Source of the DNA: a virus
DNA: 64,000 bases
IMG/VR virus record: IMGVR_UViG_3300033153_007754
Span: 64,001-128,000 of that record
Reading direction: 5' to 3' (one strand)
Part shown: one piece after another, positions 8,329-41,548 of the stretch
How positions within the stretch are numbered: the first letter of the stretch is position 1
Layout of the letters: every line of letters begins with the position of its first letter
Made by a program: the position numbers and the translations under genes
Notes under the pieces: model-generated
What the model saw: only the letters and a program-made list of their open reading frames with translations
What the model was told of the DNA's origin: nothing
Databases searched by the model: none

Positions 8329-8399
8329 TTGACAAACCCAAAAAAAACTGTATATTGTAGATAGATGGCAATTAAGCCATGATTCAATAGGAGAATGAT
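8329..8399 (+). promoter_or_regulatory. Early promoter + stem-loop + RBS cassette, copy 1
   Basis: TTGACA...TATATT, ATGGC-AATTAA-GCCAT (8365-8380), AGGAGA. Confidence 0.85.
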
Positions 8400-9380
8400 A
8401 TGATTGAGAATACTATGTGGTGTCCAAATTGTAATGAGGGCGAGGAATTAAAGAACATTAGTGATGGAAATATAAAGTGTAGAACATGTGGGTACATAGG
8501 AAAGCCGAATTGTCTTACCAATCCGTCATCGACAGAATTGGTAACCAGTGAGGAAGATATTAACGAATTGGTAGATTGTGTTACGGATAAATCACATCAA
8601 ACAACTGGTATTGGCTTTTTTAGTGCAGGGTCTGTTGATATAATTAATTTAATAAATGAAAATGAAGGGTTATTGAAATATGATTCATATGGTTCATTTA
8701 TTTTTATTATTTGGAATGGGGAAAACACCCAAAAAGTAATAGATTTATTAAAAAAAGGCGATGTGTTTCATGCCTTTATTTTAAATCACAATCATTGGTC
8801 ATATTCACAGGAAGATACACTTAAAAGAATTTCAGGTCTAATTCAATATTGGAATAACCATACTTCATCCATTACCTATCATAAGGTAAAAAATCAACAA
8901 ATTGAATTAAATAAAAAACATGTAGAATGTATGGAAGGTATGGGAGTATATTCTACTAAAGATATTAATGATTTTATGCATCCAATATATTTACTAAACA
9001 GAATATATAAAAACAAAGAAATAACTAAAAGGGATATGGGTGAGTTAAAAAAACTTATCCCTGATAATGCTGAAGGGATTAAATTAATTGAAAATTTTAA
9101 ATCTGATGTGTGTAGAGATTTTTTTCACCATGGTCATTTAGGTTATGATGAATATTTAGATACACATCTACCCATTTACAATATGTTAATAAAAAATCTA
9201 CCAGAAAACATTAAAAAAATCATATCTGGAGGGACTGATTCTTATAGTTACTCATATGAAGAAGAATGGGGTAAAAGAATGAACCAAAATGTCCATAGAA
9301 TTGACACTGAATTTATGCTTAATCAATTAAAAGGTTTAAGGCAATATGCTAGACTATTAATAGATATAGAAAAAAACTAA
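8400..9380 (+). CDS. Early hypothetical protein with N-terminal Zn ribbon
   Basis: CPNC...CRTCG; directly behind cassette 1. Confidence 0.7.
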   Translation: MIENTMWCPNCNEGEELKNISDGNIKCRTCGYIGKPNCLTNPSSTELVTSEEDINELVDCVTDKSHQTTGIGFFSAGSVDIINLINENEGLLKYDSYGSFIFIIWNGENTQKVIDLLKKGDVFHAFILNHNHWSYSQEDTLKRISGLIQYWNNHTSSITYHKVKNQQIELNKKHVECMEGMGVYSTKDINDFMHPIYLLNRIYKNKEITKRDMGELKKLIPDNAEGIKLIENFKSDVCRDFFHHGHLGYDEYLDTHLPIYNMLIKNLPENIKKIISGGTDSYSYSYEEEWGKRMNQNVHRIDTEFMLNQLKGLRQYARLLIDIEKN

Positions 9381-9415: not shown

Positions 9416-9485
9416 TTGACGAATCCCGAAAAATCAGTATACTCTAAGTAGATGGTAATTAAGCCATAACCCAAGGGAGGATACT
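9416..9485 (+). promoter_or_regulatory. Early promoter + stem-loop cassette, copy 2
   Basis: TTGACG...TATACT, ATGGT-AATTAA-GCCAT (9452-9467), GGAGG. Confidence 0.85.
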
Positions 9486-10073
9486 ATGAAAGTCATTGAA
9501 TCAAATAACGCATATATGCAGAAAGCGGAATCAATAATTATAACTTTTATTCAACCTATGTTTCATAGGGATTATAAGAATTCTTTAATGTATAATATCA
9601 AAGAAGTGTTATCATACCTATCAAAAAGAAAAAACACACCATCATTAAGCCTACATTGGTTGAATATGTCTTTAGAAAATGGATTCACTCACATGGCATT
9701 AAATAAAAGAATAGAAAAAAAAACTATAAAAAAACTTAATAAAATTAGATTAAAAAAAATATCATTATCCGATAATGAATATAGGTTACTGGGTACACAC
9801 ATTGGTTTAAATGGTAGTAATTCAATTAACTCTTTGGTTGATGATAACTATTCTTATGTTGCACTAGAAGATTATAAGGATGGAACTAATTTTTCAAAAC
9901 ATAAAATAGCCGGTTTAATATCTTCATTAGAAGAAAAAGGTTTTATATATAATGAAGATATTGGTCAAAATACTTTATATGTATTAAATGTTGATTATTT
10001 ATTAGAATATATTTTAACTGAGGAAGAATGTAGTATGTCTTTTTGGGATTGGGAATTATTCAGAGTGAAATAA
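9486..10073 (+). CDS. Early hypothetical protein (possible C-terminal wHTH)
   Basis: SKHKIAGLISSLEEKGFI is winged-helix-like. Confidence 0.55.
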   Translation: MKVIESNNAYMQKAESIIITFIQPMFHRDYKNSLMYNIKEVLSYLSKRKNTPSLSLHWLNMSLENGFTHMALNKRIEKKTIKKLNKIRLKKISLSDNEYRLLGTHIGLNGSNSINSLVDDNYSYVALEDYKDGTNFSKHKIAGLISSLEEKGFIYNEDIGQNTLYVLNVDYLLEYILTEEECSMSFWDWELFRVK

Positions 10074-24169: not shown

Positions 24170-24223
24170 ATGGCTTAATTACCATGTATTGATAGTATAC
24201 ATATGTTACAAATAAATTGTCAA
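24170..24223 (-). promoter_or_regulatory. Early promoter + stem-loop cassette, copy 3
   Basis: TTGACA-18-TATACT, ATGGT-AATTAA-GCCAT. Confidence 0.8.
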
Positions 24224-24789: not shown

Positions 24790-27570
24790 TTAACATTTAG
24801 AATTACCACACGATTTACATATTTCACAACCACCTTCAAACACCATATTTTCACCACATTCATCACAAGTAACACCTTTTACGATGCTTCCTTCTAAATA
24901 TGTTTTTAATAATTTTTTAACCTGAAATAAAAATGAATAAATTGGTGGTTCAACATTTTCAATCGAATTTATTATTTCTATAATAGGTATTCTATGTCTT
25001 AATAACATAGATATAATCCTAGACATCTTTTGTATATTAGATTGCTTATGTGACTTACCTTCTAATTCTTTAACTAACTCAGGTTTTAAATGTAAATAAG
25101 CAAGTTTTAAAAGTTCCGTTTCAACATTATTCGTCAATAATCTTGTTTCAGTACTATTTGTAAAGGTAAATATGTCATACGGTAAATTAGTTTCAGAATC
25201 AGGTGTTATAAAAACATACCATTTTCGATATTCACTTTTAATTATTTTTCTAATAACATTATTTACATCCGGATTCATAGATTTAACATCTTGTAAAACA
25301 GGTGAATCTAATTTATACTTTGTTTCTGTTTGGTTTTCCTTAACAGAACTTAATACATTACCCCTGCAACCATCTCTATAAACAGTTATACCTTTCAGTC
25401 CATTTTTCCAAGCTGATTTATATATATCACTTATAACACTTTTATCAACACTTTCAGGTAAATTCACTGTTGAAGAAATTGATGAAGTAATATGTTTTTG
25501 TATAGTTGCTTGCATTTTAATACGATATTCATAATCAATATTTTCAGCTTCAACAAAAATTTCTTTACTGCATTTCTCACCTTCAATTTCTTCATATCTT
25601 TTCAATGTATGATGTTGTGTTATCATTTCAAGAGTTTCATCACCAGATTTAACTTTTCTTACTTGTTGAATACTATAAACAGGTTCAATTCCAGCAGAAC
25701 AATTATCATGTGTCAAAGAAATTGAACCATTTGGTGCAACCGTTGTTAAAGATACATTTCTAATACCATGTATTTGTAACTTTTTTTGATATTCACTACT
25801 TAATGTTTTAAAATAATCATGATTTTTAAAGTTTTTTATTTCTTGGTTTTCTGAGTGTTTCACCATATATGGAAAAGCGCCCCTTTCAATAGCTAAATCT
25901 ATAGATGTCTTAATAGTTTGATTCTTTATAAAAGACATTAAATCATCAACAACTTTAATTGCTTCATCAGAATCATATTTAATACCTAAAAATGCTAACA
26001 TATCTGCTAAACCAGTTATACCTAAACCAATTCGTCTACCATCTAATAGTTTTATTTTGTTTGCTAATAATGGTTGTTTATCTTGGTTGATTTCAACGAT
26101 ATTATCTAATCCACGAATTAATAATTCAACACTTTTACTTAATTTATCATAGTCTATAACTGCATTTTTCCTAAAAGGATTTATTACAAAATTATGTAAA
26201 ACAATAGAACCTAAATTACAACTTTCGTTTGCAGACATAGGAATTTCACCGCAATTATGAACCAAACATGTAGAATCACATACATCATTATTAATATAAA
26301 AATTATGGTTATCTTCAACCGTTAAATCATACACATCAATACTTTCATTTAAATCTTCTATTTTTATTACTTTAACAGTATATTCTTGATAATTATATGG
26401 ATTAAAATTATCATGGATAGCCATACCCAATGTATTCTTTGCTTCTGTATATGTTCCATCTAGGTTGGCAATTAAATGTTCTGGCGTACATACAAAATCA
26501 AATCCATTACTTAAATATAATTTTATAACTTTTTTATGTCCTGTTTTAAAGGCAATTGCATTTTTAACTTCACAAACCCATTCTTTACCATTGTGTTTGG
26601 CAGAATAAACTGGGAATTCTTTATTTTCTTCAGATAATACCCTAATATCTACACCACCACGACCATCAGCAACAGCAATACTTGTATCACCAGCAAAACA
26701 CGGGTTAGTAGTGACATATTTAAAATGTTCAATCTGATTTGCTGGGTCATTTTTCAATATAGCATCATTAAATAAACAAGCTGGTTCAGCATCGGAATGA
26801 TTGTTATCAATAAATGCTTCCCATATATCACCTACTCTAAAATTCTTTTTAAAGACATCACCATTTTCAAGTTTAAATGCTGTTTCCCATTCAGCATCCA
26901 TTTCATTATTATATACTAATCCCATAAACTTATCTGTCATTTGAATGGATATATTCGCATTTTCTATTTTGGTTTTATCACCATGTTTAATTTTAATGAA
27001 ATCCATCACGTCTGGGTGGTTGATGGAAATTGTTAAAATTAATGCTCCACGTCTTCCGTTTTGTGCTATTATCCCAGTTGCAGTAGAAAATAAATCCATA
27101 AATGAAACCGCACCAGTTGATATTTTTGCGGAATTATTAACTGGTGCACCTTTTGGTCTTAATTTAGAAATATCAAAACCAACACCACCGCCCATTTTCA
27201 TGATGTTCATCATATCTTTATTTGTTGCTGATATGCCATCTATAGAGTCTTTTTCTATATCTAATACAAAACAGTTAGATAGCGTTGATTTGGTGTCATA
27301 CGGGTTATTTAGTGCATATAAAACCCTACCGGCGAATGTTATTAGATTATTATCAAATTGTTCCTTAAATATTTCATACCATTTTGAATAATCATTTTTA
27401 AAAGAATCCCTTTCACACTTTGCCATTCCACCAGCCAGCCTATGATTCATATCTTTTTTACTCATTTCCAATACGTTATTATCTTTATCTGTTAATGCAT
27501 ATTTATTATAAAACACGAATGTTGATAAATCATGTTTATGTTTTTCAAGTAAGACATTTTTCTTTTCCAT
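24790..27570 (-). CDS. nrdJ: Class II (AdoCbl-dependent) ribonucleotide reductase with intein
   Basis: LSNCFV, GGGVG, RRGA, TNPC/GE, RRIGLG, APNGSIS, KGITVYRDG; C-terminal CDECG...EGGCEICKSCG. Confidence 0.92.
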   Translation of the reverse strand: MEKKNVLLEKHKHDLSTFVFYNKYALTDKDNNVLEMSKKDMNHRLAGGMAKCERDSFKNDYSKWYEIFKEQFDNNLITFAGRVLYALNNPYDTKSTLSNCFVLDIEKDSIDGISATNKDMMNIMKMGGGVGFDISKLRPKGAPVNNSAKISTGAVSFMDLFSTATGIIAQNGRRGALILTISINHPDVMDFIKIKHGDKTKIENANISIQMTDKFMGLVYNNEMDAEWETAFKLENGDVFKKNFRVGDIWEAFIDNNHSDAEPACLFNDAILKNDPANQIEHFKYVTTNPCFAGDTSIAVADGRGGVDIRVLSEENKEFPVYSAKHNGKEWVCEVKNAIAFKTGHKKVIKLYLSNGFDFVCTPEHLIANLDGTYTEAKNTLGMAIHDNFNPYNYQEYTVKVIKIEDLNESIDVYDLTVEDNHNFYINNDVCDSTCLVHNCGEIPMSANESCNLGSIVLHNFVINPFRKNAVIDYDKLSKSVELLIRGLDNIVEINQDKQPLLANKIKLLDGRRIGLGITGLADMLAFLGIKYDSDEAIKVVDDLMSFIKNQTIKTSIDLAIERGAFPYMVKHSENQEIKNFKNHDYFKTLSSEYQKKLQIHGIRNVSLTTVAPNGSISLTHDNCSAGIEPVYSIQQVRKVKSGDETLEMITQHHTLKRYEEIEGEKCSKEIFVEAENIDYEYRIKMQATIQKHITSSISSTVNLPESVDKSVISDIYKSAWKNGLKGITVYRDGCRGNVLSSVKENQTETKYKLDSPVLQDVKSMNPDVNNVIRKIIKSEYRKWYVFITPDSETNLPYDIFTFTNSTETRLLTNNVETELLKLAYLHLKPELVKELEGKSHKQSNIQKMSRIISMLLRHRIPIIEIINSIENVEPPIYSFLFQVKKLLKTYLEGSIVKGVTCDECGENMVFEGGCEICKSCGNSKC
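26254..26700 (-). mobile_element. Mini-intein (149 aa) at the RNR active-site NP/CGE
   Basis: Starts CFAGDT, block B CTPEH, ends VYDLTVEDNHNF...LVHN followed by C. Confidence 0.93.
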
Positions 27571-27606: not shown

Positions 27607-28290
27607 TTATTTCTTTTTAGTTATTTTCTTTTTGGTTGTTTTTTTAGTTTTATTAACTGTTTTTGGTTTTGTATTTTTTTTAGATTTAACAGTGACTTTT
27701 ACCACAGCAGTTTTAGATTGTTCGCCATTACTCGAATCGAATCCGATGGTAGTTTTATTGTCATTGGTTACACTATCAATAACCTCATCCAACACACCTT
27801 TTTTTTGTTCTTTTGGGAATAAATAATCTACATTATTATTAACCCTAGTTATAGATTTAACTCTTATAAAATTCAAGTTAAATTTTTCTTTTTTGATATA
27901 AAGGTTTATTAAAGAAAGTTTGTTAATAAAAATAGGTATAAGTGTATATCCACCAATGTCAAGACTTATTAATAAATTTCTTGTGGTTTCTAAATCCAAA
28001 ACCCGTTCTTTTTTGTTTACTTCTGTATATGTTAATTTAATGGCATAGACTTTTCCACCCGAAAATGAAACATATATTTTACGTATGTTTTTGTTCTTGT
28101 TTAAATAGTGTTGTAACTCAGTGGCTACCAATACAGCTCTTTTATCACCACCTAAATAATGAAACCCAACAGCCTCTTTTTCTAAAAGAACTGTGATGAT
28201 TTCTTCCTGAATTTTAAACACACCATATTGATTATCATCTTTTTGTAACACTCTGAATTCTTCACTTCTTAACATATTGTACCCTCTCAA
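27607..28290 (-). CDS. Hypothetical protein with K/T-rich tail
   Basis: ORF. Confidence 0.55.
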   Translation of the reverse strand: MRGYNMLRSEEFRVLQKDDNQYGVFKIQEEIITVLLEKEAVGFHYLGGDKRAVLVATELQHYLNKNKNIRKIYVSFSGGKVYAIKLTYTEVNKKERVLDLETTRNLLISLDIGGYTLIPIFINKLSLINLYIKKEKFNLNFIRVKSITRVNNNVDYLFPKEQKKGVLDEVIDSVTNDNKTTIGFDSSNGEQSKTAVVKVTVKSKKNTKPKTVNKTKKTTKKKITKKK

Positions 28291-28363
28291 AATAAAAATT
28301 AATTATATAATGTAAAACATATTTAGTAAAAATATAATAAATAATTTTTTTAGGTAGTATTAA

Positions 28364-29116
28364 ATGTATATTGGCAAAATAAAATATGTTAAAGATAATG
28401 AAATAAGAGTGTTAGTTTATGGTGTTTTTGATGATGATATGCCAACAACAAATTACCCGAAAGCAATATTAACCTCTTCTTTAAATATTAAAAATGGAAT
28501 TGGTATTAATAATAAAATATCGGTAGGTGATAATGTTATTTGTGCATTCTTAAATGGTGATTATTCACAACCAATTATATTAGGTTTCATAAATAACGAA
28601 AATGACACAAAAGAATCTTGGTTTAATTCTAATACTATGGATATTAAAACAAAATCTGGTTATGGGATTTCTATAAGAAATGTTGATGAAAATAAAAATT
28701 TTGATATTGATTTTGATGGTGAAATTAATATTAATAAAACAGATGATAATTATAAAAGTGTTCTTAAGCAATTGAATGATTTAAGGGATATTTTAAATAG
28801 TTTTATTAATAAATACAACACACATAAACATGAAACATTAAATTCACAGGGAATAAAAGGTAAGGCTTTGGGTATGGGCGAAACTACCAACATACAAGGC
28901 GATAAATCTATCCCAGAATTAAATGAAGCTGCCATTCGTGCAGCAATACCAGCCAATTTAGGTATAGACCCAGTAACAGGTTTAACGGCCGTACAAATAG
29001 GCGCAATGTTAGCAATCAATATACCTGAAACAGCTCGAATAATGGCTATATTAAGTGGTGAAACTGAAAGTACTGATGGTGATTATAATGTTGAATTTAA
29101 AAGTAAAAGTAAGTAG
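28364..29116 (+). CDS. Baseplate central spike, gp5 OB-fold type without lysozyme domain
   Basis: IRVLVYG, VGDNVICAFLNGDYSQPIILG, HKH apex-like motif. Confidence 0.8.
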   Translation: MYIGKIKYVKDNEIRVLVYGVFDDDMPTTNYPKAILTSSLNIKNGIGINNKISVGDNVICAFLNGDYSQPIILGFINNENDTKESWFNSNTMDIKTKSGYGISIRNVDENKNFDIDFDGEININKTDDNYKSVLKQLNDLRDILNSFINKYNTHKHETLNSQGIKGKALGMGETTNIQGDKSIPELNEAAIRAAIPANLGIDPVTGLTAVQIGAMLAINIPETARIMAILSGETESTDGDYNVEFKSKSK

Positions 29117-29121
29117 TAGTT

Positions 29122-29448
29122 TTACTTTTTTTTGAAGTCGTTGATGATTTTATTTATTTCATCAAGTTTTGCTTTAAATTCCTGTTCTATATCTCTTTTT
29201 TCTGAATAACATTCTATCCTATCACCAAAAATCTCAAACTCTAAGTAATCATCATTATTTTCATATTCCAGTTGTATAGAATTTCGATATGTTGGAAAAA
29301 CTTCAAATCCATTTAAATCAGTTATTTTATTTATTGTTTCTTTTGTTTTTACCACGACGTTATTAGTGAAACAAGGTGTTCCATCATCAATCCAAGCATC
29401 ATTTTCTATTCTGAAATCATCAACTACACTTAATAGTTCTTCTAACAT
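29122..29448 (-). CDS. Hypothetical protein, single-copy relative of the 42387..43055 repeat
   Basis: IQLEYENNDDYLEFEI versus LVLEYDNGDNFIDFDI. Confidence 0.65.
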   Translation of the reverse strand: MLEELLSVVDDFRIENDAWIDDGTPCFTNNVVVKTKETINKITDLNGFEVFPTYRNSIQLEYENNDDYLEFEIFGDRIECYSEKRDIEQEFKAKLDEINKIINDFKKK

Positions 29449-29491
29449 TTAAACCTCAAAAAAAATTACAAATTTATTTATTCTTGAATTG

Positions 29492-29588
29492 AAAAAGGGG
29501 ATAAACAACCGAATTGTTATTTACCCCCTTTTTACTAGGAGAATCGTATGATAATGAAACAACCAAAAGAAGAAGTAACCCATCAACA
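29492..29588 (-). ncRNA. Candidate small RNA containing an anti-SD tract
   Basis: TTGACA-17-AATAAT upstream; terminator hairpin whose two plus-strand mismatches are G-U pairs on the minus strand. Confidence 0.5.
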
Positions 29589-29663
29589 TAACTATTATTG
29601 CATTTATTATTATCTTTGTCAAGTTTTTTTTAAATAAATATCTTATATTATCAGGATTTTTTT

Positions 29664-31187
29664 ATGAAGCTAGAAAATATAGAAGAAGAACTAACGTATT
29701 ATAATGGTTTAAATAACTTAAGAGGTATTAAAACTAAAGTAAAGCCACTCACAAAATTACAAAAAGTTAAAACAGCTTTATGTAAACAAAATGTCGAATA
29801 TTTCGCAGAAGAATATTATTACATTGTATCACAGGACAACGGAAGACATAAAATAAAACTAAGAGATTACCAAAAAACTATGATTAAGATGCTGTTGAAT
29901 GAAGACAGAGTTGTTATGAATACGTCAAGACAAATTGGAAAAACTGTTGTGACTGCTATTCCCATACTACATTATGCATTATTTAATGAAGCTAAATTAA
30001 TTGGGATAGCAGGGGATAACTTAGCTACTGCAAAAGAAATTTTAGATAGAATAAAAAGCGCATATATGGAATTACCAATTTGGCTTCAAAAACCTGTCGT
30101 AAAATGGAATGAAAAAGAGGTTAGATTTGCTGATGGCACACGAATATTAGCGCAAGCAACAACGGGTTCAACATTTCGTGGTTTATCTATGAATTGGGTA
30201 TTTGTTGATGAAACAGCTTTTGTCGATGATTTGCTATGGGCTGCCTTTACTGATGCTTTTTTGGCCACTGTTGCTGATAGTGTTACTGCAAAAATAACAT
30301 ACACTTCAACACCAAATGGATACAACCATTTCCATCGAATATGGACTGATGCGGTAAATGGTGTATCCAATTTTAAACCATTTCAGGTGGTTTGGACTGA
30401 TGTAAAAACAAGGAATGAAGCATGGAAAATTAAAACCATGAAAGATATTGATGCAATAGATAAAGAAAGTGCTTTCAGGCAAAACTATTGCGGTGAATTT
30501 ATAACCACTGGAACTACTTTTATTAAACAGGGTATAATAGAAAAGCTATCTTACCTTACAGCTTTAAACGCAGATGATGGCAAAGATTATCTAAACATAT
30601 ATGAAAACCCTCTTAAAAATCATATATATTCAATTGGTGTTGATTTAGGTAAAGGTGTTGGTAAGGATTTTACAACAATACAAATTGTTGATATAACAGA
30701 TGTGGATAATATCAAGTTAGTTCTATCATTCAGGCATAATAATATCGGTAGTATAGAAATAGCACCAATAATTGAATTCTTTTCTGTTTATTATAACAAT
30801 GCATATACATTAGTAGAAAATAACAAATTTGATGTTGCTGATGATTTATTCTATAATTATGGATTTGATAATCTAGTGCATAACAAAGATAATGGTGTTG
30901 CAGGTATATATACAGATAAAAAAACAAAACCTATTATGCTTAATAATCTTAAATATTTAATAACAAATAATAAATTACATATTCCCGATTACCACACTAT
31001 AAACGAATTAGCTCATTTTGTTGTTAAAAATAATGGTTCAATAGAAGCTGATTCAGGTCACCATGATGATACTATTATGGGTTTAGCATTAGCACTATAT
31101 GTTTTAAAATTAGGAGTTGTGGATAATGACCAGGAATCTATAACGAGAGAAGTTAAACAAAAAGCAATTGTATCATTTTTATTATGA
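29664..31187 (+). CDS. terL: Terminase large subunit, gp17-like
   Basis: LRDYQ, SRQIGKT, FVDETAF, STPNG, GVDLGKG, HDDTIM. Confidence 0.96.
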   Translation: MKLENIEEELTYYNGLNNLRGIKTKVKPLTKLQKVKTALCKQNVEYFAEEYYYIVSQDNGRHKIKLRDYQKTMIKMLLNEDRVVMNTSRQIGKTVVTAIPILHYALFNEAKLIGIAGDNLATAKEILDRIKSAYMELPIWLQKPVVKWNEKEVRFADGTRILAQATTGSTFRGLSMNWVFVDETAFVDDLLWAAFTDAFLATVADSVTAKITYTSTPNGYNHFHRIWTDAVNGVSNFKPFQVVWTDVKTRNEAWKIKTMKDIDAIDKESAFRQNYCGEFITTGTTFIKQGIIEKLSYLTALNADDGKDYLNIYENPLKNHIYSIGVDLGKGVGKDFTTIQIVDITDVDNIKLVLSFRHNNIGSIEIAPIIEFFSVYYNNAYTLVENNKFDVADDLFYNYGFDNLVHNKDNGVAGIYTDKKTKPIMLNNLKYLITNNKLHIPDYHTINELAHFVVKNNGSIEADSGHHDDTIMGLALALYVLKLGVVDNDQESITREVKQKAIVSFLL

Positions 31188-31193
31188 AAATAA

Positions 31194-31529
31194 TTACTTT
31201 TCTAATTCCCACCAGGTAAATGTATCAATAAGTCTTGTATATTCTTGTTTCACATTTGTTAGTTTTTTATTTTCTATAGAGAATATATATTTTTCAATTT
31301 CACCATTCTGATTCTTTAGTTCCACCAAAAAAGGATTTCCATATCTATTAATATAAACATTTATCACATTTTTTGGCGAAATTCTAAAATGTTTACTAAT
31401 GTACTTCATTAGCTTTTTTTTAGGGATGTCTTTCGGTTTCTGTTGTGACATTGAAATCTCATTCAATGTGGATACCAAATCACCTTCAAGTTCTTCCATT
31501 AAAAAATTATTACAATTTGTATATAACAT
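31194..31529 (-). CDS. Hypothetical protein
   Basis: AGGAG RBS; CATAAATA upstream. Confidence 0.55.
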   Translation of the reverse strand: MLYTNCNNFLMEELEGDLVSTLNEISMSQQKPKDIPKKKLMKYISKHFRISPKNVINVYINRYGNPFLVELKNQNGEIEKYIFSIENKKLTNVKQEYTRLIDTFTWWELEK

Positions 31530-38894: not shown

Positions 38895-40367
38895 TTAACC
38901 ATTAATTATATAAGTTGTCCATACATTGTAGTCATCAAAACCACCTTTCTTCGATGTGCAATTTAGGTTCAACCAACTTTCAGGTGAACCAGATTCTTTT
39001 AAAAACCCTTCTAAATAACTATTATTTGTAAGTATCCCAGAATATGAATGTAGCTTTACTTTTATTTCTTCACCATTTTCATATTTTTCATAGTCTAATT
39101 GTAATTTATCACTTGCCATTTTTTCTTTTTGTTTTTCAGCAATCAAACCACATTTTTTATTTAGATAAGCAAATTGTTCAATATCTCTTATACCACCTAT
39201 TTTTTTGCCATCTAAAGTGGCTTTTTCAAACTGTATTGTATCCCATTGTATTTCACAATTATTTAAGTAAGATGATATTTTTTTATACTTAAGACCATCC
39301 GCCTTAACAGATACGCTTGTTTCAACTTTACCATCTAAAACAATGTATTGTATGTTTATAAAAAAGGTATGACCTTTTCTTTTAAGTTCAAATTCTTCTT
39401 GATGACTATAATCGTCAGTAGGATTTTCAATATCTTTTAAAAGTTCAATTTCTTCAAGTTCTTTTTGTTGTTTTACTTCTTCAATTTCTTCCAATCTTTT
39501 AATTTCTTTTTCTTTTTTAGCTTCTGCATTAACACTTTTAAATTTCTTAGATTCTTCTTCTGTTGTATCCAGAAAAAGAGTTTGTGAAAAATACATTGGG
39601 TCATCTTCTCCATAAGACATATCAACATTTTCACTTGCTAGTGCAATGTCTCTTTTATTTTGTCTTTTCCCACCACTCCAATAACATCTATTCATTAATT
39701 CTTCTGTTATTTCCATTCCATATTGACCTAGATATTCACCATGTTTTTTAATAAAATTATTCAATCTTTTTTCATTTTGTTTTTCAATTTTTTCATTTTC
39801 TACAATTTCATTTCTTTCTGCTTTTAATTCAGAAAGTTTTTTAATTTGTTCTTTTGTACCATTTTTTGAAACGAAATCAGCCTTTTGAGTTCTCCAAAAT
39901 TTATTAATATCAGTTTCAATAGCAGATAAATATTTATCTGCTATTTCTTCTTTTTTTGATGCAACAACATTTTTTAACTCTTCTAACATTTCAACATTTT
40001 CACCAGCAAATTCTTTACATTTCTTAATGCCATTACTATATAAGTAATCTGCATTTAAAACGTAATTTAAGGATTTATCAAAAGCTTTTCTATTTTTTTC
40101 ATCAATTTTTTCTTGTTTTTTAACTTCTTCTTCTTTTTTTGCATTTTCTAAATCACATTCTTCAATATGATAGGCAATTCTAACCTTGCCGTATCTACTT
40201 GAAGATACTTCAGTTTCACAATTTAAAGTATGAGTTTCCCCAACTTTAAAACTTTTCATGGTTTCTTTTTTTTCAAGTTTCCATTTAAGAGAATAACCCT
40301 TAAATTCTGTAGTGCAATGTATCCATTTTCTTCCCATCTTTTCTATCTTTAGTGTTAATTCAATCAT
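38895..40367 (-). CDS. Early hypothetical protein (490 aa)
   Basis: Behind cassette 4. Confidence 0.7.
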   Translation of the reverse strand: MIELTLKIEKMGRKWIHCTTEFKGYSLKWKLEKKETMKSFKVGETHTLNCETEVSSSRYGKVRIAYHIEECDLENAKKEEEVKKQEKIDEKNRKAFDKSLNYVLNADYLYSNGIKKCKEFAGENVEMLEELKNVVASKKEEIADKYLSAIETDINKFWRTQKADFVSKNGTKEQIKKLSELKAERNEIVENEKIEKQNEKRLNNFIKKHGEYLGQYGMEITEELMNRCYWSGGKRQNKRDIALASENVDMSYGEDDPMYFSQTLFLDTTEEESKKFKSVNAEAKKEKEIKRLEEIEEVKQQKELEEIELLKDIENPTDDYSHQEEFELKRKGHTFFINIQYIVLDGKVETSVSVKADGLKYKKISSYLNNCEIQWDTIQFEKATLDGKKIGGIRDIEQFAYLNKKCGLIAEKQKEKMASDKLQLDYEKYENGEEIKVKLHSYSGILTNNSYLEGFLKESGSPESWLNLNCTSKKGGFDDYNVWTTYIING

Positions 40368-40437
40368 GTGATTCTCCTACAAATCATGGCTTAATTACCA
40401 TCTATTTACAGTATATTGATTTTTCGGGATTTGTCAA
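40368..40437 (-). promoter_or_regulatory. Early promoter + stem-loop cassette, copy 4
   Basis: TTGACA...TATACT, ATGGT-AATTAA-GCCAT, AGGAGA. Confidence 0.85.
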
Positions 40438-40909: not shown

Positions 40910-40977
40910 ATAATCCTCCCAGATTGTGGTTTAATTGCCACCTATATACAATATACTCATTTATTTAAATTTGTCAA
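40910..40977 (-). promoter_or_regulatory. Early promoter + stem-loop cassette, copy 5
   Basis: TTGACA...TATATT, GTGGC-AATTAA-ACCAC, GGAGG. Confidence 0.8.
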
Positions 40978-41477: not shown

Positions 41478-41548
41478 ATCATTCTCCTGTTGAATCATGG
41501 CTTAATTGCCATCTATCTATAACATACGGATTTTTTTAGATTTGTCAA
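41478..41548 (-). promoter_or_regulatory. Early promoter + stem-loop cassette, copy 6
   Basis: Leader nearly identical to copy 1 (ATGGCAATTAAGCCATGATTCAACAGGAGAATGATATG). Confidence 0.85.

Follow-up and report, generated by a model that had tools for sequence, protein, structure and literature searches.

Small RNAs that act on the start site of a messenger have been described both in phages and in their hosts. The sar RNA of phage P22 is reportedly a cis-antisense RNA of about 69 nt directed against the actively transcribed leader of ant, and MicF is a host chromosomal, Hfq-dependent small RNA (sRNA) whose target, ompF, is a paralogue of its neighbour. The c4 RNA of phages P1 and P7 (immI) acts in trans, pairing around the ribosome-binding site (RBS) of its target and blocking translation (PMC12197685). 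In T4, two proteins silence a large set of early mRNAs by acting at the start site: RegA, a translational repressor, and RegB, an endoribonuclease that cuts GGAG in early Shine-Dalgarno (SD) sequences. According to a 2010 review (PMC3014915), functional characterisation of a small RNA regulating in trans had yet to be achieved for that phage. Here we analyse a window of 64,000 nt, bases 64001-128000 of the virus record IMGVR_UViG_3300033153_007754 (153.5 kb, with terminal repeats and rated complete), and describe a minus-strand unit next to the terminase gene TerL that is predicted to yield an RNA of about 96 nt and may encode an sRNA acting on the start sites of early genes. Positions are those of the window unless stated otherwise.

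Judging from its T4-type terminase domains, gp20 portal, gp23 capsid protein and diverged TerL, the phage is a distant relative of T4. Its GC content is 26.8% and intergenic DNA makes up only 10% of the genome. The unit sits in a 215-nt gap that has TerL (29664-31187, plus strand) on one side and, on the other, an open reading frame (ORF) of 108 aa at 29122-29448 on the minus strand, hereafter ORF 29448.

As sar is said to do, the predicted RNA would lie as a short antisense RNA over a start site and end in an intrinsic terminator. It differs from sar in that the sense start site, although present, has no plus-strand promoter scoring at least 9/12 (29052-29583) and in that better-supported targets are found elsewhere. 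Like MicF, it diverges from its neighbour gene, is predicted to pair imperfectly with the SD and AUG and probably involves a duplicated target 5′ end; unlike MicF, it has the neighbour TerL itself, together with early cassettes, as predicted targets. With c4 it would share the mode of action of a phage small RNA, in trans around the RBS, as well as the relationship of regulator and target, which are related copies in one genome. However, c4 is processed from the transcript of its target, belongs to a temperate phage, controls a single operon (ant) and forms its own Rfam family, whereas the present unit is bounded by a promoter and a terminator of its own, lies in a lytic T4-like genome, and has a predicted dispersed regulon plus TerL and no Rfam family.

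A further kind of known element, the promoter-early stem-loop (PeSL) cassette, resembles the unit in its parts: a strong sigma-70-type promoter, an AT-rich upstream region and a terminating GGGG...CCCC stem-loop, in an intergenic, mosaic part of a T4-like genome (PMC2839356, PMC4122927). The layout is different. In published PeSLs the stem-loop is placed within the promoter or beside it, halts transcription that arrives from upstream and is followed by an SD and a gene (PMC2839356, PMC4122927), whereas here it starts 57 nt past the -10 with no SD-led ORF in between, and the SD of the next gene, which has its own late motif, comes 35 nt beyond the stem-loop. The features of the unit and of its surroundings are as follows.

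29594..29622, minus strand: P29622, an early-class sigma-70-type promoter (TTGACA at 29622-29617, 17-nt spacer, TG at 29602-29601, AATAAT at 29599-29594)
29623..29645, minus strand: segment upstream of P29622, with the aaaaaaaaCTTGACAAA context common to other early promoters
29492..29587, minus strand: predicted RNA of ~96 nt, its start placed at G29587 from the -10 spacing (range 29585-29589) and its 3′ end in the U5 tract 29496-29492
29555..29587, minus strand: 5′ half of the RNA, rich in pyrimidines and imperfectly antisense to TerL codons 3-13
CUUCUUCUU tract: candidate TerL-pairing tract, opposite GAA codons
29534..29552, minus strand: candidate seed against translation initiation regions (TIRs), with the linker GAUUCUCCUAGU (29545-29534) and the 17-mer AUCAUACGAUUCUCCUA (29552-29536), complementary to TAGGAGAAT-N3-ATGAT
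29492..29533, minus strand: intrinsic terminator with A5, a 13-bp GGGGG...CCCC stem holding two G.U pairs (core 29528-29497), the loop AAUUCG and U5
29528..29595, plus strand: sense-like chimeric pseudo gene start, a cassette-type TIR (TAGGAGAAT-cgt-ATG, 29536-29550) followed by ~13 codons resembling the TerL start
29644..29711, plus strand: start of TerL (its TIR and first 16 codons), a candidate target from which the duplicated segment presumably derives

An earlier note on this stretch had proposed that a minus-strand promoter points into a pyrimidine-rich RNA of about 95 nt ending in a terminator, and each of these parts was recovered. P29622 matches the consensus at 11/12 positions, carries the TG in addition and is the best-scoring site in 28000-31500. 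It has the sigma-70-like early promoter and the AT-rich upstream region of the PeSL class, and it possesses one of the 18 genome copies of the 9-mer CTTGACAAA, A-tract included, nearly all of which are found at early promoters before genes. The segment upstream of it overlaps the TerL late-promoter-like motif on the opposite strand. At the other strong intergenic early promoters an SD-ATG ORF is found 25-72 nt past the -10; three had been mapped further off (125, 143 and 335 nt), and on inspection each of them was found to have an SD-led ORF, two of these three ORFs being small and missing from the crude gene map. P29622 is the only strong early promoter here without an SD-led ORF before a terminator.

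The hairpin is present at 29497-29528, flanked by A5/T5, and its two A.C mismatches on the plus strand are G.U pairs on the minus strand, as the same note had claimed. Its energy is -17.4 kcal/mol on the minus strand, the lowest of 77 terminator-like hairpins genome-wide, and -8.0 kcal/mol on the plus strand; elsewhere between genes, the clear terminators are short GGGG/CCCC stems right after the 3′ ends of genes. For the 111-nt context the fold energy is -32.5 kcal/mol as minus-strand RNA (z -4.4; 0/200 shuffles as good) and -18.7 kcal/mol (z -1.7) for the plus strand. The predicted RNA itself, at 96 nt, folds into a weak 5′ hairpin, an open linker and an 18-bp terminator stem (-29.3 kcal/mol), and pyrimidines make up 63% of its 57-nt body. 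A purine content as low as that of the body (37%) is seen in just 1.2% of sense windows, so that the plus strand appears sense-like and the transcribed minus strand antisense-like. Rfam at gathering thresholds gave no matches in the whole window, and a permissive search of 29400-29700 returned best matches of 15-23 bits against thresholds of 42-100, that is, no family membership. By consensus and energy only, the unit has the own promoter and Rho-independent terminator, 50-300 nt in all, of an sRNA gene, and a discrete short early RNA is probably made from it.

The start sites with which this RNA would pair belong mainly to about 14 dispersed PeSL-like early cassettes in the genome, which consist of an A-tract, cTTGACAAAtcc, 16-17 nt, TATAcT, a 5-bp hairpin and a start site. 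The hairpin at +1, AUGGY-AAUUAA-GCCAU, varies by compensatory changes in its stem, with G-C in place of A-U at 40942 and one more C-G pair at 24186; compared with published PeSLs, it lies in the 5′ untranslated region (UTR) and has no U-tract after it. The cassette SD is UAGGAGAAU, and the start sites come in two variants, TAGGAGAAT-N3-ATG or GGGAGGATAATATG. The terminator loop of the unit, AAUUCG, is closed by C-G and starts with AAUU like the invariant cassette loop AAUUAA. A 4-bp loop-loop contact through the self-complementary AAUU, or a shared loop-binding protein, is conceivable, and the likeness may be a coincidence.

8329-8404, 9416-9490, 24223-24150, 40437-40363, 40977-40905, 41548-41474 and 47727-47662: cassette copies in the window (more lie outside it)
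34,363 and 57,885 nt before the first base of the window: starts of further cassette genes
8388..8404, plus strand: predicted target TIR of cassette gene 8400-9380 (15/17; cofold gain -16.3 kcal/mol, both flanking hairpins kept)
40363..40379, minus strand: predicted target TIR of cassette gene 38895-40367 (15/17; cofold gain -21.4 kcal/mol)

There are seven genome copies of the block TAGGAGAAT, each followed by N3-ATG. Six are the start sites of genes of 56-541 aa that stand behind a same-strand early promoter of the TTGACA type. The remaining copy, at 29536 (plus strand), heads a 29-aa ORF only, lies directly after the hairpin and T5, and is antisense to P29622. In the RNA, the 12-nt linker GAUUCUCCUAGU, which contains UCUCCUA, is unpaired in the ensemble with a probability of about 0.9-1.0. 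The matches on which the earlier note had built its case were all found: the 17-mer TAGGAGAATCGTATGAT (29536-29552, plus strand) agrees at 15/17 positions with 8388-8404 (plus) and 40379-40363 (minus), and the start of the csx20-like gene at 41488 (minus) at 13/15. For the 17-mer there are 3 matches against 0.23 expected. In silico, the pairing that the note had predicted also held when it was ranked over the phage start regions: 31/220 reach -15 kcal/mol or better with the 30-nt seed, shuffled seeds giving 4.75 (max 16), and early-cassette genes take 12 of the first 16 places by seed duplex energy. These statistics are restricted to the seed and to cofolding; a previous ranking with a 62-nt query was set aside as inflated by long interior loops. 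Cofolding with four cassette mRNAs gave gains of -15 to -21 kcal/mol and left the target 5′ hairpin and the sRNA terminator intact, compared with only -3 to -9 kcal/mol for the controls portal, capsid and ORF 29448. In silico, the RNA has an accessible seed that is complementary to start sites beyond chance.

TerL had been picked as a further control, and its pairing (cofold gain -17.5 kcal/mol) was unexpected. The plus-strand segment 29528-29595 is 56% identical to 29644-29711, in register at a lag of 116 nt, whereas the genome-wide identity at this lag is 30.4% (sd 6.1) and the fraction of windows as similar is 7e-5. TerL is first of 220 gene starts in ATG-anchored similarity to the pseudo start and second of 220 in duplex energy with the 5′ half of the RNA (-22.6 against a mean of -13.1, sd 3.2). 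Over 57 positions in register, the RNA and the TerL mRNA could form 33 Watson-Crick and 8 G.U pairs. As far as sequence comparison goes, the similarity to the TerL start is suggestive of a real signal, and the plus-strand segment is best described as a chimera between a cassette-type SD block and a diverged, in-register duplicate of the TerL 5′ end (~13 codons). The RNA would thereby also be an imperfect antisense of the TerL mRNA start, which the earlier note had overlooked.

We propose that the host sigma-70 RNA polymerase would start at P29622 and stop at the 29528-29497 hairpin and U5, as the consensus signals suggest, and that a non-coding early RNA of ~96 nt would be released. This RNA would be the antisense of a chimeric start, in which a cassette start site is fused to a diverged TerL 5′ duplicate, and by base pairing it could cover the SD and AUG and block 30S binding. 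Its targets would fall into two sets, the early-cassette mRNAs, with 15/17 pairing in four and a duplex of -18 kcal/mol or better in about a dozen, and the TerL mRNA, reached via the pyrimidine-rich 5′ half. The outcome may be that early-protein synthesis is damped or shut off, that terminase synthesis is limited, or both. Of the explanations considered, an antisense regulator would account for the most features, given the intact early promoter, the missing SD, the exposed anti-start seed and the strand-specific strong terminator, and it is also favoured by the perfect cassette SD block in a segment that is otherwise 56% TerL-like. Profile searches of the genome for RegA, RegB, AsiA and MotA gave no match, which may leave room for an RNA solution and proves nothing. 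The idea of an AsiA-resistant extended -10 that delays sRNA synthesis was dropped, no AsiA or MotA being detectable.

We give a base-pairing regulatory sRNA a probability of roughly 40%. In the trans-acting translational off-switch put forward by the earlier note, the self-contained minus-strand unit and the in silico pairing stand, and the regulation itself carries the doubt that this figure expresses. That one early RNA from a chimeric duplication both shuts off a dispersed PeSL-type regulon and gates terminase synthesis is, as a complete scenario, rather doubtful.

Several observations count against such a regulator. At position 2 of the spacer the copy has a G and all real TIRs have an A, and the resulting central A.C mismatch splits each cassette duplex into 9-10 bp and 5-6 bp; a seed optimised for the cassette targets would be expected to carry a U at this position. 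Any RNA that is the reverse complement of a canonical start site would show such complementarity, which becomes trivial if the plus-strand TAGGAGAAT-ATG is the working start site of the 29-aa ORF. By a rough composition estimate, chance would produce a strong SD-ATG with an open frame of 29 codons in about one of a thousand such regions, a rarity which suggests selection for some feature of the plus strand or for its mirror image. The strand preference of the hairpin is weak evidence alone, as two transitions would both be G.U on one strand with p = 0.25, and the U5 tail is short, so that read-through into ORF 29448 is possible. The similarity to TerL is in part a low-complexity GAA run, and it was noticed post hoc in one of four controls, which brings its p to about 0.005-0.02. 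The RNA and its proposed early targets share a promoter class, the timing logic of which is not obvious, and a single sRNA gene would face 14 or more strong cassette promoters. Finally, blastn against cultured phages found no relatives in which conservation or covariation might be seen, and exact-pattern scans of viral and metagenome contigs for the unit and the cassette hairpin were empty or gave a chance match.

Which of the other explanations may hold depends in part on the neighbouring genes. The core ATAAATA is enriched 20-39 nt upstream of start codons (25 of its 41 upstream occurrences), and the portal and gp23 capsid genes have TATAAATA 29 and 40 nt upstream; by analogy, this positioning is the T4 late-promoter pattern. 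The motif AATAAATA is found upstream of the starts of ORF 29448, TerL and the plus-strand gene 28364-29116 (20 nt in the last case).

29475..29482, minus strand: late-promoter-like AATAAATA, 26 nt before the ORF 29448 start and downstream of the terminator
29633..29640, plus strand: late-promoter-like AATAAATA, 23 nt before the TerL start

Since its motif lies downstream of the terminator, ORF 29448 probably has its own late promoter. An extended motif, AATAAATATnTTATAT, is found at 29633-29648, at 880, 10304 and 60358 nt before the window start and, past the window end, at about 80090 in window numbering, which suggests a longer late-promoter consensus here than in T4. Gene 28364-29116, which has weak baseplate-spike OB-fold matches, and ORF 29448 converge with 5 nt between them; there is no terminator between the two and both have late-type motifs, so that overlapping antisense late transcripts are expected.

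The explanation that competes best, though we consider it unlikely, is that the unit is a relic or an insulator, namely an empty or rearranged PeSL-type cassette whose early promoter was stripped of its ORFan by recombination. The RNA would then be made and have no function in trans. The stem-loop would stop early transcription from spilling into the late ORF 29448 and, on the plus strand, would weakly stop late read-through from gene 28364, the TIR copy and the TerL-like segment being scars of recombination or duplication. PeSLs do pair strong sigma-70 promoters with terminating GGGG...CCCC stem-loops, recombine often and have been proposed to block spill-over from early to late genes (PMC2839356, PMC4122927). 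About 14 such cassettes exist in this genome, the A5/T5 flanks have the shape of a bidirectional terminator, and the central A.C mismatch shared with all targets looks like drift. However, a scar is not expected to keep a perfect 9/9 SD block at the exact N3-ATG spacing, and the block that was kept differs from the SD region of TerL itself at six or more positions. The promoter, the exposed seed and the terminator are moreover all intact and in the correct order, in a genome where intergenic DNA is scarce.

The two small frames that overlap the unit bear on two further explanations.

29548..29637, plus strand: 29-aa ORF, whose second half is the reverse complement of P29622 (LCQVFF corresponds to TTTGTCAAGTTTT)
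29521..29589, minus strand: 22-aa hydrophobic ORF (MLMGYFFFWLFHYHTILLVKRG), without an SD and with its stop codon in the terminator 5′ arm

If the 29-aa ORF were a real micro-gene with a cassette-type start, the complementarity of the minus strand would be its mirror image, and the RNA would exert at most a cis-antisense control as in P22 sar. The mRNA of such a gene would have to come from late read-through out of gene 28364 or from a promoter that escaped recognition. From 29116 up to the weak 29497-29527 hairpin the plus strand has no terminator. On the same strand, neither a sigma-70 promoter of at least 9/12 in the interval given above nor, on inspection, a late-type motif just upstream was found. 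The perfect TAGGAGAAT-N3-ATG is the same as in six real genes, the plus strand is purine-rich like mRNA, and three other ORFs of 23-34 aa with strong SDs are found in intergenic DNA. The other small SD-led ORFs, however, come after genes on the same strand, which the 29-aa ORF does not; it comes directly after the hairpin and T5, and its last ~13 codons are merely the complement of P29622. With a codon log-likelihood of -2.0 it falls under the 5th percentile of the values for real in-frame windows (10.3, sd 4.3), and for the 22-aa ORF the value is -6.9 against 7.7 (sd 3.7), with 81% of wrong-frame ORFs scoring at least equal. Neither ORF has a match in PHROGs. Both appear to lack phage codon usage and score as non-coding, and we regard a plus-strand micro-gene as quite unlikely. 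A programmed frameshift from the 29-aa ORF into TerL was rejected on inspection, the frames being different and the stop lying 27 nt before the TerL ATG.

It is improbable to a still greater degree that P29622 is the early promoter of ORF 29448, with the unit as a 5′ leader holding a constitutive partial terminator and the short RNA as a by-product. The standard cassette order is promoter, hairpin, RBS and gene, one cassette has a 125-nt leader, and ORF 29448 is the next gene on the minus strand, 146 nt past the -10; the U5 is a modest tail that makes some read-through likely. Against this, the AATAAATA of ORF 29448 stands at the modal distance, the 5-bp cassette hairpins are much weaker than this one, which has a U-tract after it, and the copy of a start site would be left unexplained. 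An attenuator for ORF 29448, which the earlier note had listed as an alternative, is weakened by this late-like motif and by the lack of an antiterminator fold, the RNA reaching -11.6 kcal/mol with the 3′ arm blocked and -31.9 kcal/mol when free. The only fold that competes with the terminator is a 6-bp UCUCCU/AGGGGG helix, and an attenuator or riboswitch leader was set aside for want of a competing antiterminator.

Very improbable is a leaderless or near-leaderless mRNA for a hydrophobic peptide of 20-22 aa, which the earlier note had raised as a leaderless 22-aa peptide and which would be a small membrane or type-I-toxin-like product: there is an AUG at 29589-29587, right at the predicted start, and the frame stays open up to the terminator with a hydrophobic core and then KRG, but an SD is missing, the best-placed start G29587 (from the -10 spacing) would remove the first AUG, the codon score is the worst and no family matches, and the hydrophobicity follows from the complement of a purine-rich strand. 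Nor is the layout that of a type I toxin-antitoxin system, since the plus-strand ORF has no promoter and is not a membrane helix, and the hydrophobic minus-strand ORF has no SD and no promoter for an antisense partner. The remaining weight goes to the absence of transcription. A replication-origin R-loop primer was also considered and dropped, as a pyrimidine-rich RNA would disfavour stable R-loops and iteron-like repeats are found elsewhere (31.6 kb).

Regarding the relatives of the neighbouring genes, TerL is at most 35% identical to any TerL of a cultured phage and 22-25% identical to its relatives in IMG/VR. In a set of 5.8 billion proteins there is a single near-identical protein (P0001), the next ones being 36-38% identical. 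P0001 is the same TerL minus seven residues, ADSGHHD (residues 462-468), in the C-terminal nuclease region, and the difference is either a population variant or an assembly difference. ORF 29448 has no family match in Pfam or PHROGs, and a search for its relatives found none.

Some further observations concern other parts of the genome. An early promoter at genome position 46015 (minus strand; 17985 nt ahead of the window) and its gene are separated by a leader of 72 nt (agcaagcacgggataccctgaccgctgccagc...) whose GC content is unusually high; the leader could be a structured 5′ UTR. Another early promoter, scoring 12/12, is found at genome position 48052 (minus strand; 15948 nt ahead of the window) and drives a helix-turn-helix-like ORF of 34 aa (MQQIRISKLAKDLGITKQTLWVWKREGKIEKQKN) directly upstream of a TnpB-like gene of 539 aa, for which no relatives were found in the species genomes searched. 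In the window, a ribonucleotide-reductase-like ORF of 926 aa (24790-27570, minus strand) contains, from its translation only, an apparent intein (…NPCFAGDTS … LVHNCGEI…), and no tRNAs were found.

If the plus-strand micro-ORF or the relic turned out to be the right explanation, the finding would be an ordinary one. In T4-type phages, the only known agents of post-transcriptional early-gene shut-off are the proteins RegA and RegB. If the predicted RNA does regulate by base pairing, an RNA-based early shut-off would exist in these phages as a counterpart of the two proteins, and the mobile PeSL-like cassettes would share a start-site 'address' by which shuffled accessory genes could be controlled together. 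It would also mean that a riboregulator can be built from duplicated target 5′ ends, and an uncultured phage would provide a compact anti-RBS module.

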